This document shows positions 101 to 39,900 of a stretch of DNA of 64,000 nt, one piece after another. The position numbers were made by a program, and so were the translations under genes. How positions within the stretch are numbered: position 1 is the first letter of the stretch; each line of letters begins with the position of its first letter. This stretch comes from Candidatus Aenigmatarchaeota archaeon (GTDB lineage: Archaea; Aenigmatarchaeota; Aenigmatarchaeia; CG10238-14; SCSR01), in the NCBI GenBank assembly GCA_016187385.1, contig JACPJU010000001.1, positions 8,348 through 72,347 of the forward strand. Direction: 5' to 3'. The notes under the pieces are model-generated. The model searched no databases. It was not told where the DNA came from and saw only the letters and a program-made list of their open reading frames with translations.

Positions 101-1393
101 ATGGCCGTTGATTTCAAGCGCATCTGGAGTTACTATTCCCGCGAATCTGTTCAAAAGGCTCTTGTGGAAGCAGGCAAGGACAGGGAAGTGGTTTCTGTTT
201 TTCAGGACGGAAGCTTCGGTAAGCGGCCAGACATCATACAATACCCGACAGACGTAGTTCAGGCTGTTTCTGACGGTACGGTCGCTTTCCACGGCTCTGT
301 GGAGAGATGGAACAATCCGATGAACTTGAGCGTCGGCATGTACAAGCCTGACATGGACAACCTAAGAAAAGGCTGGGACATTATTTTTGATCCTGATGTC
401 AAGGACTTTGAAATCGCTAAACTGGTCGCGAAACAGATAATACAAATACTAGAAAAGCACAATGTCAAAAATTACTCTGTTAAATTCACGGGTGGCAAAG
501 GGTTTCACATAGGCGTTTGTTTCGAATCCCTGCCGGAAAGGATAAATCTTCAGCCGGTAAATACATTATACCCTTCGCTGTTCCAGAATGTGGTAGAGTA
601 TGTCAAGTGGTATTCTAGAGATGAGTTAAAGGAAAAATTGTTGGCTCTGGATGATCCCGAGAACTTGGCCAAAAGAGTCGGCAAATCGCTTAACGAGATA
701 ATAACAGAGAATGAACTTGACCCGTTCAAGATAATCTCGATGGATGTGTTCGGCTCGCGGCATCTTTTTAGGCTTCCTTATTCTCTACACGAGTCGACTT
801 TGCTTGTCAGCATGCCTGTAAAAGTTGAGAAGATAGAAAAATTCAAAAAGGAAGATGCGTCGACTGAAAAGGTCAAGATTGATGAAAAGTTTCTTGTGCC
901 TTTGGTAAAGAATGACGGCGAAAGTTTGATAGTCGAGGCGTCGGACTGGGCAAGCAAGTATAAGATTGAAGTCAAGACTGAATTCCAGCAAAGGAAATTT
1001 GTAAAAATCAGTGAAGTTCCTGAAACGTTTTTCCCGCCATGCATCAGGCAGTTATTGCAAGTTGGACTGGCTGACGGCAAGAAAAGAGCTTTGTTCATTC
1101 TTATCACATTCATGAGAAACATGGGATGGTCTGACGAAAAGATACAGGACAAGGTAGTCGAATGGAACGAAAAGAATATACCACCGTTGAGGTCTAACTA
1201 TCTACGTTCGCAATTGAGATGGCATTTCAGGCAGGACAGAAATCTGCTGCCGCCGAACTGCGTTAATGATGTGTTCTACAAGCAACTCGGACTCTATGAC
1301 ATGTGCTGCAAGGAGATAGATCATGCGAACATCAAGAACCCTGTTAATGTGCCATTAAGGAGATTGAAAGAAAGGAAACAAGTGGTTAAATAA
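101..1393 (+). CDS. Fused DNA primase (PriS catalytic domain + PriL C-terminal Fe-S domain), DPANN type
   Basis: PriS motifs WDIIFDPD, KFTGGKGFHI and RHLFRLPYSLH, followed by PriL-CTD motifs FFPPCI, DGKKRALFIL and LPPNC in one 430-aa ORF. Confidence 0.9.
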   Translation: MAVDFKRIWSYYSRESVQKALVEAGKDREVVSVFQDGSFGKRPDIIQYPTDVVQAVSDGTVAFHGSVERWNNPMNLSVGMYKPDMDNLRKGWDIIFDPDVKDFEIAKLVAKQIIQILEKHNVKNYSVKFTGGKGFHIGVCFESLPERINLQPVNTLYPSLFQNVVEYVKWYSRDELKEKLLALDDPENLAKRVGKSLNEIITENELDPFKIISMDVFGSRHLFRLPYSLHESTLLVSMPVKVEKIEKFKKEDASTEKVKIDEKFLVPLVKNDGESLIVEASDWASKYKIEVKTEFQQRKFVKISEVPETFFPPCIRQLLQVGLADGKKRALFILITFMRNMGWSDEKIQDKVVEWNEKNIPPLRSNYLRSQLRWHFRQDRNLLPPNCVNDVFYKQLGLYDMCCKEIDHANIKNPVNVPLRRLKERKQVVK

Positions 1394-1425
1394 CGTTTGG
1401 GTTTTGGGCTTAGGATTTTTGTTCG

Positions 1426-1523
1426 TGTCCCATATGGGATATTGTAGTACGTACTACATGTGTGGATTGCGGTATAAGACGCCTCATATCTCTGCGATCT
1501 TGTCTTATGTCACACGTGTGACA
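1426..1523. repeat. Cluster A of 16-bp palindromes
   Basis: TGTCCCATATGGGATA (1426-1441, 1 mismatch), TGTAGTACGTACTACA (1443-1458, perfect), TGTCACACGTGTGACA (1508-1523, perfect). Confidence 0.9.
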
Positions 1524-1618
1524 TTATCAAATCGACAAGAATATCCTATATGCATCAATTACTTTAATGCAAACCCGACCTGTAAATCTTTATAAATTTA
1601 TTTTATTGATTGTAATCC

Positions 1619-2155
1619 ATGGAAGGGGAGATACTTGACTTTATTGCACAAAATAGATTGATAGTTGCTAGTCTGGGCTTGCTAGCTTTGGGGGGTGCAT
1701 TATATTTACGAAAAATGAATCGTTCTCAAAGAATCACCGTATCCAATAATCTGTCACAAGCTTCGACTGTAGAAAAAGTTGATGAAGTAAGAGTTGATGA
1801 TGAGGAAGAATTGCAAGTAAGAGACATTTCCCAGTTATTAGCACAAAAACTGGATGACAATAGTTATGAGCTGGTTGCTAAAGTCGACAAGGTTTACAAC
1901 AGTCCAAGAGGTTATATAGGCCTATTGTCAGATCATGAGGCAAAAATACCTTTCATTTATGAAAAACATGAAGGTGATGACGATAGTTATTATGCTATCG
2001 CCGGACTTTTATTGCACGAATCATTGGATAGCCGGTCTGATTTAGAATTAAACGGCACTGTCAAATCTCCTTATACTGATGATACATCGCGAACTTTCCG
2101 TATAGAATATATGAAAGGGAAAATCGCTGGCATGGATTACGAAGTCTCACTCTAA
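1619..2155 (+). CDS. Hypothetical protein with N-terminal membrane anchor
   Basis: 178-aa ORF, hydrophobic LIVASLGLLALGGALYL, TATA-like TTTATAAA about 25 nt upstream. Confidence 0.7.
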   Translation: MEGEILDFIAQNRLIVASLGLLALGGALYLRKMNRSQRITVSNNLSQASTVEKVDEVRVDDEEELQVRDISQLLAQKLDDNSYELVAKVDKVYNSPRGYIGLLSDHEAKIPFIYEKHEGDDDSYYAIAGLLLHESLDSRSDLELNGTVKSPYTDDTSRTFRIEYMKGKIAGMDYEVSL

Positions 2156-2219
2156 TTGATGCTTACCGAGGCTGATAAAATCTATTTAACTTTTCTAATT
2201 TTCTATATAAAATGAAAAC

Positions 2220-2741
2220 ATGCCAGAAGAAACAATCACTTTCGAGCTTATCCGAAAGGTGCATCTGGAAGAACAGAAATCGCCTACATTGACCAGAATA
2301 CCGACGAATTTCTTCCATGCGACCTCGAATTACATCAACCAGAAGAAACAGTTGGACATCGACGACAGGAAGGCATCCCTTGAATTAAGAAGCGTCGAAA
2401 GACTGATAGAAGACATATTCAACAGGAGGGAAAGGAAGATTCTGAACGCCGCCATAATTTCTGCTAGAACAGGATTGCCTCCGGAAAATCTTTCGGAAGA
2501 GGAAAGACCGTTCTACAATTCAATTGTAGCCATGGTAAAGAACAGGAGACATGAACTTCTGTCTGTTATGATGCCTGACAAGAGAAAAGAATCCATGGCA
2601 ATCTTCAAGGAGGACACTCCGGAATTTGTCGGAAGCGACGAGCAGACTTATGGACCTTTCAAGATAGGGGATACGTCCAAGCTTCCTGAGGACGACATGA
2701 GAATCCTTCTCGAAAGGGGCGTGGTAGAAGAGCTTAAATAA
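2220..2741 (+). CDS. GINS complex subunit (GINS15-type)
   Basis: IEDIFNRRERKIL, NLSEEERPFY and B-domain PEFVGSDEQTYGPFKIGD. Confidence 0.85.
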   Translation: MPEETITFELIRKVHLEEQKSPTLTRIPTNFFHATSNYINQKKQLDIDDRKASLELRSVERLIEDIFNRRERKILNAAIISARTGLPPENLSEEERPFYNSIVAMVKNRRHELLSVMMPDKRKESMAIFKEDTPEFVGSDEQTYGPFKIGDTSKLPEDDMRILLERGVVEELK

Positions 2742-2772
2742 CTTTTAAAATAAATCTTTACAATTGATTTAA

Positions 2773-3054
2773 ATGAAATTCCCCCAGACTCTTAGGACAT
2801 ACTGCATATACTGCAAAAAACATACAATGCATACAGTAGAAATATCCAAGAAAAGGACCAGAGGGTCAATGACACAAGGTCAAAGGAGATATCAACGTAA
2901 ATTAAAGGGGTATGGAAGCTTTCCACGCCCGAAACCAGATCATGAAAAGGTCACGAAAAAAGTTGACTTGAGATACAAATGCAGCGAATGCGGCAAGAAG
3001 CATATGAGAGGTCAAGGATGGAGAGCGAAGAAATTCGAGTTGGTGAAAGGGTGA
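2773..3054 (+). CDS. rpl44e: 50S ribosomal protein L44e
   Basis: [10 protein letters not shown]...[17 protein letters not shown]. Confidence 0.95.
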
Positions 3055-3065
3055 AAGAATTGATC

Positions 3066-3236
3066 ATGCCAAGAAGCAAGTTTGTCAAGGTTACATGCAG
3101 GAAATGCAGAAACGAGCAGGTAATATTCAACAAGGTTTCTACTGTTGTGAAATGCTTGAAATGTCAGAATGAGCTGGCGACTCCTACTGGCGGGGACGCT
3201 GAAATTAAGGGAAAAGTTACGAAATCTTTGATGTAA
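3066..3236 (+). CDS. rps27e: 30S ribosomal protein S27e (alternative GTG start at 3051)
   Basis: MPRSKFVKVTCRKCRNEQVIF...KCLKC...PTGG; conserved L44e-S27e order. Confidence 0.93.
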   Translation: MPRSKFVKVTCRKCRNEQVIFNKVSTVVKCLKCQNELATPTGGDAEIKGKVTKSLM

Positions 3237-3288
3237 AATTTATATACTAGCTGCAAAAAAAAGTTTTTGCTGTTTATCCAAAATATAT

Positions 3289-3322
3289 TATCATCTATGC
3301 GACAAATGTAGTACGTACTCAA
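3289..3322. repeat. Cluster B of degenerate 16-bp palindromes
   Basis: TATCATCTATGCGACA (3289-3304) and TGTAGTACGTACTCAA (3307-3322), matching units in clusters C and A. Confidence 0.7.
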
Positions 3323-3401
3323 AGTCGCGAATTAAGTATGAACAAATAGGAAGGTAAGCGTACGAAGAAGGACTTAAATACCTTACTATCAAGTAATAAA
3401 T

Positions 3402-3833
3402 ATGAAATTTCCAAAAACTTCTGGTTTCAAAAGAAGACAAGAATTAGTCAGACAAATTATCGAAGCTTATAAACAAAAAGCAATAAAATTGGCTTATCAG
3501 CTTGGTGATTTAAGAGACATCAGGAGTGATTATAGAGAATCAGTAGCAAATTATAGACCAACTGAAATTTTAAGTAATCCGCCATTGCAAGACGTGTTTG
3601 GGCATTATGATCAAAAAACTCAACAGCGTATAGGCACCGGACTTATACAAGCTATCTTATTCGCCCCAGACGAGGCTATGGCAGAAGCTGAATGGTACGA
3701 AAAACTTGTTGATTCTCCTCGATTATATTTTGTAACTGGATCTGATTTACAAGAAGTTCTTGAAAGATTACCCCTTACAAAAAAACCAAAATCTTTTACA
3801 TATTTGAGAAACCAGCGTCCGCCGACCGTATAA
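3402..3833 (+). CDS. Hypothetical protein
   Basis: 143-aa AT-rich ORF with upstream TTAAATA box. Confidence 0.6.
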   Translation: MKFPKTSGFKRRQELVRQIIEAYKQKAIKLAYQLGDLRDIRSDYRESVANYRPTEILSNPPLQDVFGHYDQKTQQRIGTGLIQAILFAPDEAMAEAEWYEKLVDSPRLYFVTGSDLQEVLERLPLTKKPKSFTYLRNQRPPTV

Positions 3834-3910
3834 ATTAACATCTAAATCGAAACAAATTCTACCATGTCTAAAACCTTATCTTTTTAAAACGCGAAATATT
3901 AGTAGATATA

Positions 3911-4465
3911 ATGTTCTGGAGCAAGAAGAAGTGCAGGAACTGCGATAATGAAGTCAAATCCGACTGGATGTACTGCTCTAACTGCGGGATAGACTTGACA
4001 GAAAAGAAGCATATCCATAGCGAGATTGACAAGGATTTCCGAAGGATCGACAAATTGTTCGACGGCAGGGAGCCAAAGTTCATTTTAAAGCCATCGCTAA
4101 AGTCCAAAGGCATCAGCATAACAATAACTTCTGATAATATGACTCCGCCAAAGATTGAGGTTATGTCATCTGGCGAGTTTAAAAGAAAGTCACAGATTGA
4201 GGAGCCAAAGCCTGTAAGAATACCAAAGGTTACAGAAGAGCCTCACACGAAGATTGAGAGAAAGCATGACAAGCAGATCATTACTGTTGATATGCCTGAT
4301 GTGAAGAGCCTTGATGATATAGAACTCAAACAGCTTCACCAGAGCATTGAGATAAAGGCATTCGCAGGGGACAAGGCATACTTTAAGCTGATTCCTATAC
4401 CAATGAACGCAACCGTCAACAATGAATTCAAGGACGGCGTGCTAAAGATTGAAGTTGTGAAATGA
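3911..4465 (+). CDS. Zinc-ribbon + Hsp20/alpha-crystallin-like domain protein
   Basis: CRNC...CSNCG at the N-terminus; C-terminal ITVDMPDV...EFKDGVLKIEV. Confidence 0.75.
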   Translation: MFWSKKKCRNCDNEVKSDWMYCSNCGIDLTEKKHIHSEIDKDFRRIDKLFDGREPKFILKPSLKSKGISITITSDNMTPPKIEVMSSGEFKRKSQIEEPKPVRIPKVTEEPHTKIERKHDKQIITVDMPDVKSLDDIELKQLHQSIEIKAFAGDKAYFKLIPIPMNATVNNEFKDGVLKIEVVK

Positions 4466-4509
4466 TTATCTCATCTGACTGATATGTCTTTTTGGTTATC
4501 GAAAAGGTT

Positions 4510-4647
4510 TGTCGCATATGCGACATGTACAACCTCCCATGTAAAACGTTTTACATATTTGGAAAATTGTCTGACGCCATGCATTGTCCCATATGGGACA
4601 TTATTCTTCGCGATACAATCACAACATTAATTGTCACACGTGTGACA
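4510..4647. repeat. Cluster C of 16-bp palindromes
   Basis: Perfect: TGTCGCATATGCGACA (4510-4525), TGTAAAACGTTTTACA (4540-4555), TGTCCCATATGGGACA (4585-4600), TGTCACACGTGTGACA (4632-4647); degenerate: TGTCTGACGCCATGCA (4568-4583). Confidence 0.92.
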
Positions 4648-4661
4648 CACAAAGAACGCCA

Positions 4662-5357
4662 TCAAAAAATCAACTTTATAAAAACCGCGAAAATTAAAAT
4701 TGTCCCCAAATCTGCTATTGATGTCATAACCGGCAAAACAAGGTTGTTGGGATCCTCCTTCCGTGAATAGACATAGTATACAGCAAAAGCCGCGATTACA
4801 ATGATCAGGCTGACCATCGACAACGTTGTGAACAATGAAATCTGCAGCACTTTTAAAACGGAAGCCAAAGTCAATGAGAATCCATTCAGATAAGCTATCA
4901 AGGAAGAAATCGCGCTTATGTAAAATGCGGAAAAAATAGCCACAAGTGCTATTGTTCTTATCAGTTTTCTGATGTCTTCATCCATCCACCAATCGCGCTT
5001 CGTGCCTTTCGTGAAAACCAGTGTAGACAGTCTAGAAACCATAATCATGCTGTAATCCCCAATCATGTCATTCAATGCGGGCAACAGAATAATCAACGGT
5101 AGAAAAGCTATGAACGATGATTGAATTTTCTGCAGGCTTATCCCGCTTATGGTGCTGAAAAGAAACGCCAGTATCAATGCCAAGAGACTCTCTCTAAGTA
5201 TGACAGACACTATGTTTGACTTGGGTCCGTATTCTTTCATGTAGAAAATGGTTCTGTGCGAAATTTTGTGTTTGCGGTGAATCTTATGAATGAGAGGGTT
5301 ATGCTCATGTCTTTTCAATCTTGCCAATTGTTTTCTGAGTTTTGATGATAATTTCAT
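4662..5357 (-). CDS. MgtE-family divalent cation transporter, membrane domain
   Basis: LLPALNDMIGD and EDPNNLVLPVMTSIADL. Confidence 0.8.
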   Translation of the reverse strand: MKLSSKLRKQLARLKRHEHNPLIHKIHRKHKISHRTIFYMKEYGPKSNIVSVILRESLLALILAFLFSTISGISLQKIQSSFIAFLPLIILLPALNDMIGDYSMIMVSRLSTLVFTKGTKRDWWMDEDIRKLIRTIALVAIFSAFYISAISSLIAYLNGFSLTLASVLKVLQISLFTTLSMVSLIIVIAAFAVYYVYSRKEDPNNLVLPVMTSIADLGTILIFAVFIKLIF

Positions 5358-7840: not shown

Positions 7841-8479
7841 TCAGCCTATAACCCGTGATAACAAGGCAATGTTCAAGATTCCCAGGAAGCTGAACAGGAA
7901 TGAGAAGAACAGAACTTTCTTCGCATCATAGCGAGCAATAGCCCACAACACGGACACGAAAACTTCTGTGGGCAACGGCAGTGAAACAAGTATGCCGGAA
8001 ATGGCGGGTATCGCCGCTTGCAGGAACTTTGATCTGTATACTCTCTGGTTGAGCCTGTGCTCAAATCTTTCAACATCGAATCCCATCTCGCGGGAAAAGA
8101 TGAACTTTACCTCTTCCAAGACATCCTCTTTGATGAATCTATATATGAGAAAATTGCTTATCATGGCGCCTAATCCCGCTATCAATGCTATTAGAACCGG
8201 ATTGAAGCTCTTGGAAATAACGAATATTGCGACTGCTGATGCAGCTGTCAACGCGCCGTAAGAGAATAAAAATCCAAGTAGGAGAGCACTCAAATATCCA
8301 AATTGAGCTAGGAATTCTGTTACCGCATATATCAGACCTGAATGCGCGAGGAAATATGCAAATACCAGTCCCAAAACAAGAATAATGATATTTTGATGCA
8401 TGAAATGGAACTTTATCAGGCTGCCCATGAAAGTATTGACTTTTCTAACCCGCTGGCTATCCTTGTAGGAATATTTCAT
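7841..8479 (-). CDS. Membrane protein, possibly DedA/VTT-like
   Basis: Multiple TM segments, LIAGLGAMISNFLIYRF, SLPLPTE. Confidence 0.65.
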   Translation of the reverse strand: MKYSYKDSQRVRKVNTFMGSLIKFHFMHQNIIILVLGLVFAYFLAHSGLIYAVTEFLAQFGYLSALLLGFLFSYGALTAASAVAIFVISKSFNPVLIALIAGLGAMISNFLIYRFIKEDVLEEVKFIFSREMGFDVERFEHRLNQRVYRSKFLQAAIPAISGILVSLPLPTEVFVSVLWAIARYDAKKVLFFSFLFSFLGILNIALLSRVIG

Positions 8480-38619: not shown

Positions 38620-39900
38620 ATGGTGAAGGTTTATGGAGAATTTTATGGATGTTCAGCAAACAAAGCCGATTATGAGATAATGATTGGACTATTGAAGGAT
38701 GCTGGGATGGAAATTGTCGACTCTCCTAAGAATTCTGATATCAACTTGATAACGACTTGCGCTGTTAAAACGCCAACAGTTAATAGAATGATTTTCAGGT
38801 CAAATGAATTGACGAAGTTTAACAAACCGTTAATTGTTGCAGGATGCCTGTCGAAAATTGAAAAGGAAAGGCAATTAATAGAAAAGATAAATCCCAAAGC
38901 CAGTTTTGTTGGTCCCGATTCTATAACAAAAATCGTGGATGTCGCACATGCGACATTAAATGGAGAGAAAGTTCTCTCTTTAGAGAGGGTGTACGAAGAA
39001 AAAGTTGGTTTACCACACCTAAAAACAAATCCAATAGTTGATATTGTTGAGATAAATAGCGGCTGTCTTTCTTCTTGCACCTTTTGCGCAACAAAATTGG
39101 CTCGCGGTAATCTATACAGCTACAGACCTCATTCCATAAGGGAACAAATAAAACAATCGATAAAAGAAGGTGTAAAAGAAATCTGGTTGACATCACAAGA
39201 TTCATCGGCTTATGGAAGAGACATAGGAACTAACCTACCGGAATTGCTCGATTCGATAATTAGAATAGACGGAAATTTCTTTGTCCGAGTGGGAATGATG
39301 AATCCATTGCATTTCAAGAAAGTCGAGATAAAAGATTTAATCAATGCTTACAAGAATGAAAAGGTTTTCAAATTCCTGCACTTGTGCGTGCAGTCGGGAA
39401 GCAATAAAGTTTTGAAGATAATGAAGCGCGGTTATACAGTTGAAGAGTTTGTTTATTACGTTGAACGGTTCAGGGAAGAAATACCGGAATTGACATTAAT
39501 GACTGACATCATAACAGGCCATCCTGGTGAGGATGAAGAAGACCATGAACAAACTGTCGAATTGATAAAAGAAATCAAGCCAGATCTGACTGTTTTATCA
39601 AAATTCGGTGCTAGACCGGGGACACAGGCTGCAAAGATGGGACAGACACCCCAGAAAGTGGTTAACGAAAGGAGCAAAGAATTGTCAAAGATTATTAGAC
39701 ACGTGTCTTATGAAAGAAACAAAAGATGGTTAAGGTGGGAAGGTAAAGTTTTGATTGATGAGAAAGTCGAGGGTGCTGTTGTCGGGAGAAATTATGCATA
39801 CAAGCCTATAGTCATAAAAGAAAATCTTGGATTGGGTTCTACAGTCAATGTGAAAATATCTAAAGTTACTCGATATGCGTTGACAGGAAAATTGGTTTAA
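38620..39900 (+). CDS. tRNA t6A37 methylthiotransferase (e-MtaB/CDKAL1-like radical SAM)
   Basis: YGCSAN, TCAVK, GCLSSCTFCATK, VQSGS, C-terminal TRAM domain. Confidence 0.92.
   Translation: MVKVYGEFYGCSANKADYEIMIGLLKDAGMEIVDSPKNSDINLITTCAVKTPTVNRMIFRSNELTKFNKPLIVAGCLSKIEKERQLIEKINPKASFVGPDSITKIVDVAHATLNGEKVLSLERVYEEKVGLPHLKTNPIVDIVEINSGCLSSCTFCATKLARGNLYSYRPHSIREQIKQSIKEGVKEIWLTSQDSSAYGRDIGTNLPELLDSIIRIDGNFFVRVGMMNPLHFKKVEIKDLINAYKNEKVFKFLHLCVQSGSNKVLKIMKRGYTVEEFVYYVERFREEIPELTLMTDIITGHPGEDEEDHEQTVELIKEIKPDLTVLSKFGARPGTQAAKMGQTPQKVVNERSKELSKIIRHVSYERNKRWLRWEGKVLIDEKVEGAVVGRNYAYKPIVIKENLGLGSTVNVKISKVTRYALTGKLV

Follow-up and report, generated by a model that had tools for sequence, protein, structure and literature searches.

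We analyzed a set of short palindromes in a 64,000-nt stretch of archaeal DNA (the window), located at positions 8,348–72,347 of contig JACPJU010000001.1 in the assembly GCA_016187385.1 of Candidatus Aenigmatarchaeota archaeon. The palindromes, 16 bp in length and referred to below as words, occur in three intergenic arrays (A, B, and C) at and near the genes for primase and GINS. They are probably operators of stand-alone proteins of about 69 residues with a Cas2/ChrB-N fold, and the arrays of the window are word copies with no family gene beside them, which likely serve as docking sites at gene boundaries. We observed the palindromes themselves, their position in front of Cas2-fold genes, the covariation of protein residues with the words, the homology of the family with ChrB_N, and the co-occurrence of genes and words. 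Sequence data likely reveal an undescribed family of tiny archaeal Cas2-shaped proteins, in which one helix varies in step with the DNA word upstream of the gene. No published description of the family or of the palindromes was found in a literature search that left subscription papers and supplements outside.

Words are designated by the variable triplet and the 4-nt centre (e.g., CCC/ATAT), the half-site being TG(T/A)NNNAN. The genome containing the window (G000; 876 kb, 3 contigs, 91% complete) had 342 TGT-N10-ACA sites. All five variable pairs were complementary in 32 of them, compared to 0.41 expected from base composition. Complementary arms were found at 40/342 sites with the N10 spacer and at 0–6 of 218–367 sites with spacers N6–N9 and N11–N14. 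A genome-wide excess of arm complementarity, proposed as a check in the preliminary description of the window, was therefore present, and other spacers showed none. With TGA-ended forms included, 37 perfect TG[T/A] words were found at 22 loci of G000. The vocabulary was small: AAC/ACGT occurred seven times, and CAC/ACGT, CCC/ATAT, and CCC/AGCT four times each. The AYRT centre described previously was too narrow, as any palindromic ANNT occurred (ACGT, ATAT, AGCT, and AATT). The supposed clustering around primase and GINS also did not hold with this genome-wide spread, and a word was present at only 3 of 29 GINS loci of relatives.

All four copies of a gene for a Cas2-fold protein of about 69 amino acids in G000 were directly preceded by a perfect word, different in each case:

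C2:324772, 539656, 700627, and 758818: paralogs of the family gene in G000, the last one a frameshifted copy

A family search retrieved 143 relatives with protein lengths of 63–96 amino acids. Of the 118 genomes of the order, 65 had the family (1–17 matches each); elsewhere in the phylum, it was found in 3 of 253 genomes. Gene loci were pooled from genomes and metagenomes; a minimum of 60 bp of upstream sequence was available at 142 distinct loci, including the four genes of G000 (one frameshifted locus was counted twice). Within 80 bp upstream, a perfect 16-bp palindrome was found at 117 loci, a palindrome with 7 of 8 pairs at 20, and neither at 5. The control scan downstream of the family genes gave 5/141 perfect palindromes, and perfect second copies of the word do occur there. 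A further 26 loci had a perfect word in 18 cases. For 95 of 118 gene-linked words, a TATA-like hexamer was located no more than 14 nt before the word, and the word thus lies between the promoter box and the start codon. An archaeal repressor bound at this position would block initiation. Both the copy number of the gene (0–17) and its neighbours varied among genomes, and no neighbour was conserved (215 neighbours formed 160 clusters). A single locus of genus g1 by the pyruvate dehydrogenase genes had alleles with four different words across genomes, indicating that specificity switches in place. Sequence-specific binding and self-repression by the family proteins are very probable on these data, and we have high confidence that the words would be operators of self-repressing homodimers.

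The word tracks residues on one face of helix 1. Residues were numbered from the invariant Asp (residue 0), and mutual information was calculated over 76 dereplicated protein–word pairs. Residue 3 corresponded to word position 8 (Arg/Lys with C, Phe/Glu/Gln with G, Thr/Met with T), and residue 9 to position 6 (Lys with C in 22/22, Glu with T in 10/11, Ala with A in 7/9). Residue 10 was linked to positions 3, 4, and 5 (Leu with A3 in 9/9, Lys/Arg with C4 in 30/32), and residue 13 to positions 4 and 5. At residue 14, linked to position 2, Arg accompanied G2 in 75 pairs and Leu accompanied T in 1. Residues 6, 9, 10, 13, and 14 belong to a predicted helix (residues 14–26 of the AlphaFold model; predicted local distance difference test score 95.5), and their spacing i, i+3, i+4, i+7, i+8 corresponds to one face.

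The correspondence also had predictive value. In a first held-out set of 24 loci, the exact word was predicted from the nearest helix in 17 cases and from the nearest rest-of-protein in 8; for neighbours with less than 60% identity, the values were 41/109 and 19/109. Among 81 nearest-neighbour pairs, the word position of residue 3 changed in 0/66 pairs with this residue unchanged, while the position of residue 9 changed in 2/59 pairs with the residue unchanged and in 16/22 with the residue changed. At least 32 gene-linked words are now distinguished (29 plus three more). Among the options of the preliminary description, a code for which related DNA-binding proteins are the readers is strongly supported, and the family is identified. 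It had also been argued that an ordinary operator would not need perfect symmetry. However, seven of the eight half-site positions, including the central pair, were fixed or covaried with protein residues, so the best site of a homodimer would be a perfect palindrome.

The family shares homology with the ChrB N-terminal domain. Its profile, run against 1.84 billion representatives, retrieved true ChrB_N proteins, and hhalign against full-length ChrB gave a probability of 95.6 and an E value of 1.3e-8 over 65 columns, the helix being ungapped. Family positions 9 and 14 correspond to R18 and R23 of ChrB (numbering from P0227, not from the Ochrobactrum tritici protein). The equivalent of R23 was Arg in 75/76 proteins, and that of R18 is the variable specificity position. 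In O. tritici ChrB, the R18A and R23A substitutions led to constitutive expression with loss of repression; the protein, mainly a dimer, bound its own promoter at an inverted repeat that was imperfect (PMC3817168). Together with the homology, this result provides an experimentally supported precedent for DNA binding via helix 1. Upstream regions of bacterial plasmid chrB genes contained an imperfect 16-mer in the TG-N4-A-N2-T-N4-C frame of the words in 3/5 cases and lacked it in 2/5.

In the fold search, Cas2 came first (3exc; TM score 0.75, E value 1.2e-4; a middling Z of 7.9, root-mean-square deviation 2.4, 66 residues aligned), with VapD and PaaX lower. Weak matches of the members at E ≤ 0.05 were, out of 120, to Cas2 (28), PaaX_M (24), and ChrB_N (17). 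The Asp of the family was invariant, and a Ser was nearly so (132/133). These residues correspond to D7 and S43 of VapD by motif, not by residue-level alignment; both are needed for the RNase activity of VapD (PMC3351183). The Asp-Ile-Pro motif also occurs in PaaX-like proteins, and ChrB is without the Asp; the motif is thus no proof of catalysis.

Features of the window related to the words are as follows:

1426..1441: CCC/ATAT orphan word with one mismatch, array A; a gene-linked copy was not found among 14 loci
1443..1458: AGT/ACGT perfect orphan word, array A; in G078, a family gene (L284) immediately follows the identical word
1508..1523: CAC/ACGT perfect orphan word, array A; upstream of family genes in L017, L049, L064, and L203
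1619..2155, plus strand: ORFan of 178 amino acids between primase and GINS, beside array A; in relatives, primase and GINS are mostly adjacent or have other genes between them
3289..3304: decayed word corresponding to the right half of CGC/ATAT, four mismatches, array B
3307..3322: decayed AGT/ACGT word, two mismatches, array B
3402..3833, plus strand: ORFan of 143 amino acids between S27e and Hsp20, beside array B
4510..4525: CGC/ATAT perfect orphan word, array C; precedes family genes in L189 and L273
4540..4555: AAA/ACGT perfect orphan word, array C; upstream of family genes in L025/L114, L111, L116, and L166
4568..4583: decayed CTG/ACGT word, three mismatches, array C
4585..4600: CCC/ATAT perfect orphan word, array C; cognate gene not found
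4632..4647: CAC/ACGT perfect orphan word, array C; the MgtE-like gene has its stop 14 nt away
38940..38955: one-mismatch CGC/ATAT word within a coding sequence; may be due to chance

The six perfect units were confirmed at the places where they had been reported (1443, 1508, 4510, 4540, 4585, and 4632). Of the three loci said to carry units, A and C do so, the unit at 1426 having one mismatch, while B contained degenerate copies alone. The statement that the window had no units elsewhere was not accurate in view of the near-perfect one at 38940–38955. Allowing one mismatch, the originally described pattern gave 19 matches in the window compared to 7.6 ± 2.4 after shuffling, and none of 100 shuffles reached 19. 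An assembly artefact is not indicated: contigs of runs X1 and X2 covered positions 900–5300 unbroken with identical letters, those of X3 extended to 5206, and X4 covered the region in two pieces. No listed contig joint of the four runs fell on a word; all four runs come from a single study that may itself have supplied this DNA, and they bear on the assembly only.

All six perfect window units are orphans, with no cognate gene found in G000. Four of the five words (AGT, CAC, CGC/ATAT, and AAA) have cognate genes in relatives; for CCC/ATAT none was found. In the whole genome, 28 of the 37 perfect words match known operators of other genomes, and just four are gene-linked in G000. Arrays A and B adjoin ORFans at junctions that vary among relatives, and array C lies between the convergent Hsp20 and MgtE-like genes. 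Convergent orientation was found at 4 of about 15 intergenic orphan loci compared to a background of 68/504, i.e., with no clear excess. The 178-amino-acid ORFan had itself as the sole match of near length among 5.8 billion proteins; for the 143-amino-acid ORFan, no usable Atlas match and no Pfam, PHROG, or PADLOC family were found.

Extra words were almost confined to genomes having a family gene. Among the 118 genomes, 31 of the 32 with at least five ACGT-centred words encoded the family, and 53 gene-negative genomes had 17 words compared to 29 control matches. In G095, G096, G094, G099, and G062, the word of a resident paralog was repeated 10–18 times each at ordinary gene junctions, and G030 likewise repeated one word. 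Mixed arrays were found in G000, G014, G001, G077, and G079; adjacent words mostly differed (39/46). In genus g34, the S27e–Hsp20 interval was occupied either by a frameshifted copy of the family gene together with its word (L158) or by words alone (L146, L154).

Two perfect words of G000 were located within coding sequences, at C2:592929 in a large helicase-like gene and at C2:497651 in a pilin-like gene; the former was unchanged in G001 despite about 74% identity of the surroundings. Four tandem pilin-like genes with near-identical N-termini occupy C2:495375-497834. Within the window, a single gene at 101–1393 matched both the small and the large subunit of primase (fused primase), and the Hsp20-like protein encoded at 3911–4465 had a zinc ribbon at its N-terminus.

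In G056 (L207:1639-2781), G042 (L206:1-561), and P0195, the Cas2-fold domain was fused in frame to the N-terminus of a Cbf5/TruB pseudouridine synthase, with word pairs on either side of the domain, the downstream pair lying within the coding sequence. A word search, which is weak evidence, detected no longer fused forms, although this fusion exists. In L210 (1283–1561, G027), a winged helix-turn-helix gene was directly upstream of the family gene, like a split PaaX; it is similar to the small winged-helix gene of L005 (G000 C2:380151-380397), which follows a related perfect 16-mer beginning with TTA. A second, imperfect inverted repeat, possibly the site of another factor, was found shortly upstream of the TATA-like box of the family gene in L041, L059, L098, L146, and L158. 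The family gene was not found in viral contigs. These contained 32 stretches with CAC/AAC-type words, many probably due to chance; one contig of 35.9 kb had three perfect CAC/ACGT words (L228, L237, L254), with matching contexts in two others (L234, L238).

According to the operator explanation, each protein dimer would bind one 16-bp word through helix 1, and the bound dimer would repress its own gene. One-gene cassettes would arrive and leave at gene junctions, leaving words behind; these would be retained, and symmetric double changes would switch them to other specificities. A dimer tightly bound at a gene end would form a roadblock or boundary to transcription reading through; in some lineages, it may also set the limits of exchanged DNA. 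With a mixed array, the site could be occupied by any paralog present in the population. We regard the dynamic part of this scheme (cassettes coming and going at junctions and seeding words, which are kept and switched as roadblock or boundary sites) as plausible but tentative. For the orphan arrays, boundary docking is placed first with moderate or low confidence.

Several observations weigh against the operator explanation. In a second held-out set, which consisted mostly of unseen words, whole-word prediction failed, with 2/18 correct for both predictors; the rules for positions 4 and 8 held in 16/18 and 17/17 cases, and that for position 6 failed in 2/2. A Thr3/Lys9/Arg10 protein was predicted to own the CCC/ATAT word, and no gene was found beside this word at 14 loci; five of the 142 gene loci mentioned above had no good word. 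The four family genes found in G000 (91% complete) all have upstream words other than the five of the window; thus, nothing known in this genome would bind the window words best. Between orthologous orphan words of G077 and G079, 12 of 22 differences were unpaired, indicating that some words decay. Finally, the genomes are related, so p-values for the co-occurrence are overstated.

A rather unlikely rival keeps the words as operators and takes their dispersed copies for crossover points, where the bound protein (a bridge, barrier, or nuclease) would start or end DNA exchange. Genes would then be gained and lost at the words, and mixed arrays would record exchange with lineages having other paralogs. 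Genomes G095 and G096 (297 kb aligned, 90% identity) provide the main evidence for it. Word-bearing junctions were at synteny breaks in 11/17 cases compared to 36/212 other junctions (p = 4.5e-5), which held within length bins; from the other side, the values were 8/13 and 38/203. In six of nine G095/G096 word pairs, hand-picked for display, identity ended 0–1 nt from the word edge with one flank matching. At G000 C2:138544 and G001 L291, one flank was common, and the other consisted of different genes ending at the word edge; the presence of words on both sides of some family genes also agrees with crossover. However, 36 of 47 breaks between G095 and G096 were at junctions without a word, and the far flanks gave no match to clean excision between two words. 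A comparison of 14 G077 loci with 20 G079 stretches (five had no nearby match) left the crossover idea unsupported, the alignment crossing the array unbroken at 6 of the 9 loci that could be compared. Neither Cas1 nor Y1 transposase (PF01797, 0 matches) was found in G000. Site-specific cassette systems (integron attC, pdif modules) have a dedicated recombinase for their sites; the one tyrosine recombinase of G000 had no word beside it. Cas1 was encoded in 7/32 word-rich and 20/86 other genomes. Moreover, a conserved word beside an insertion would look identical. A related and equally doubtful proposal is programmable, PRDM9-like site marking in nanosized archaea, with the 69-residue Cas2-fold readers setting the gene-exchange points of the chromosome through their hypervariable helix and the mixed arrays of perfect words being landing pads or a record for readers of neighbouring lineages.

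There is a small chance that the orphan words are neutral relics of deleted cassettes, kept symmetric solely through template-switching self-correction. A decay path is visible from a word with a frameshifted gene (L158) to a site that retains this promoter and word but no longer has the gene (L146). In addition, an AAC-type gene of G002 is flanked by scpA and scpB-like genes, and at this place in G000 there is an orphan AAC word. The 12 orthologous orphan word pairs of G077 and G079 differed at 22/192 positions, a raw divergence not far below that of the flanks. On the other hand, nhmmer detected no family-gene remnants near the G000 arrays, and a TATA-like box accompanied only 3/66 orphan sides compared to 95/118 gene-linked words. 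Vocabulary copies in G000 were perfect in 28 cases and had one mismatch in 7, and arrays occupied the same places in G000 and G001, whose flanks there are about 70% identical, though the words turn over. Two of the three perfect-to-perfect switches between G077 and G079 connected words that are both operators elsewhere, and word spacing peaked at 17 and 21 nt. Ten of the 22 differences were symmetric pairs, and AAC had changed to AAA at two separate loci; selection for binding and palindrome self-correction predict this alike. For the orphan copies, recombination sites and a palindrome-generating mutation process, both suggested in the preliminary description, are still candidates.

A one-gene addiction or defence module is still less probable. 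Here, a VapD-like nuclease would be inactive on its own operator, and the arrays would be decoys for foreign paralogs or a protein store until the chromosome is degraded. The Asp/Ser match with VapD, the Cas2/VapD-type nucleases as best fold matches, the lack of a conserved neighbour gene, and the many G000 words known as operators from other genomes fit such a module. The occurrence of the Asp-Ile-Pro motif in PaaX-like proteins, the ChrB proteins without the Asp, and the failure to find the gene in viral contigs do not. The extra words of several genomes match the resident, not a foreign, paralog, and the Cbf5 fusion in one lineage is hard to reconcile with a toxin.

The would-be loop is always itself palindromic, which disfavours a hairpin read in single-stranded form. 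The link to neighbouring replication genes as parS-like partition or origin elements is extremely improbable and largely refuted: the 16-bp TGT-N10-ACA shape resembles bacterial parS, but no ParB match was found in G000 (PF02195, 0 matches; controls detected in 10/14; genome 91% complete), the 22 loci are scattered with few at the GINS genes of relatives, and the covariation is with the Cas2-fold gene.

If the words are operators, the Cas2 fold likely also serves to read DNA in a sequence-specific manner, by a natural code that relates residues to bases (135 protein–operator pairs, at least 32 words). The code would predict how the structurally uncharacterised DNA-binding domain of ChrB reads DNA, and the family may offer very small, possibly orthogonal repressors. 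It would also explain a hypothetical protein left unannotated in over half of one Aenigmatarchaeota order. The question is raised why optimal sites are retained in a reduced genome that seemingly does not encode their readers and whether such sites steer gene gain and loss.

Among known systems, Cas2 and VapD are not known for sequence-specific operator reading. With Cas2, VapD, and the PaaX central domain, the family shares the predicted ferredoxin-like fold and the Asp after strand 1, while the members shown score under the family cut-offs. Unlike Cas2, it has unrelated neighbours and no adaptation module, and no Cas1 match was found in G000; unlike VapXD, it has no adjacent antitoxin gene among the 215 neighbours in 160 clusters. 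It differs from PaaX in being stand-alone with no fused winged helix, the winged helix-turn-helix of L210 being a separate gene directly upstream.

The features of ChrB, namely an N-terminal DNA-binding domain (PF20229), dimerization, and repression of its own promoter at an inverted repeat (PMC3817168), are matched in the family by a homologous domain, the dimer and self-binding being predicted. The family proteins, however, are stand-alone (69 amino acids), without the C-terminal chromate-sensing domain and the chrA operon, and a genome can encode up to 17 of them; the perfect sites are of at least 32 kinds, and orphan arrays occur genome-wide. As in REP-RAYT systems (PMC3686654), there are many classes of intergenic palindromes with perfect copies, an abundance tied to the cognate gene, and repeats that may flank this gene. 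The family protein differs in having a Cas2 fold and not being an HUH tyrosine transposase, and the words differ in occurring in tens rather than hundreds of copies, in being symmetric through the centre, and in their operator position. Thus, the system resembles ChrB autorepression in its predicted mode of action and REP-RAYT in its layout, while on the features tested it belongs to none of ChrB, Cas2, VapXD, PaaX, parS-ParB, and REP-RAYT.

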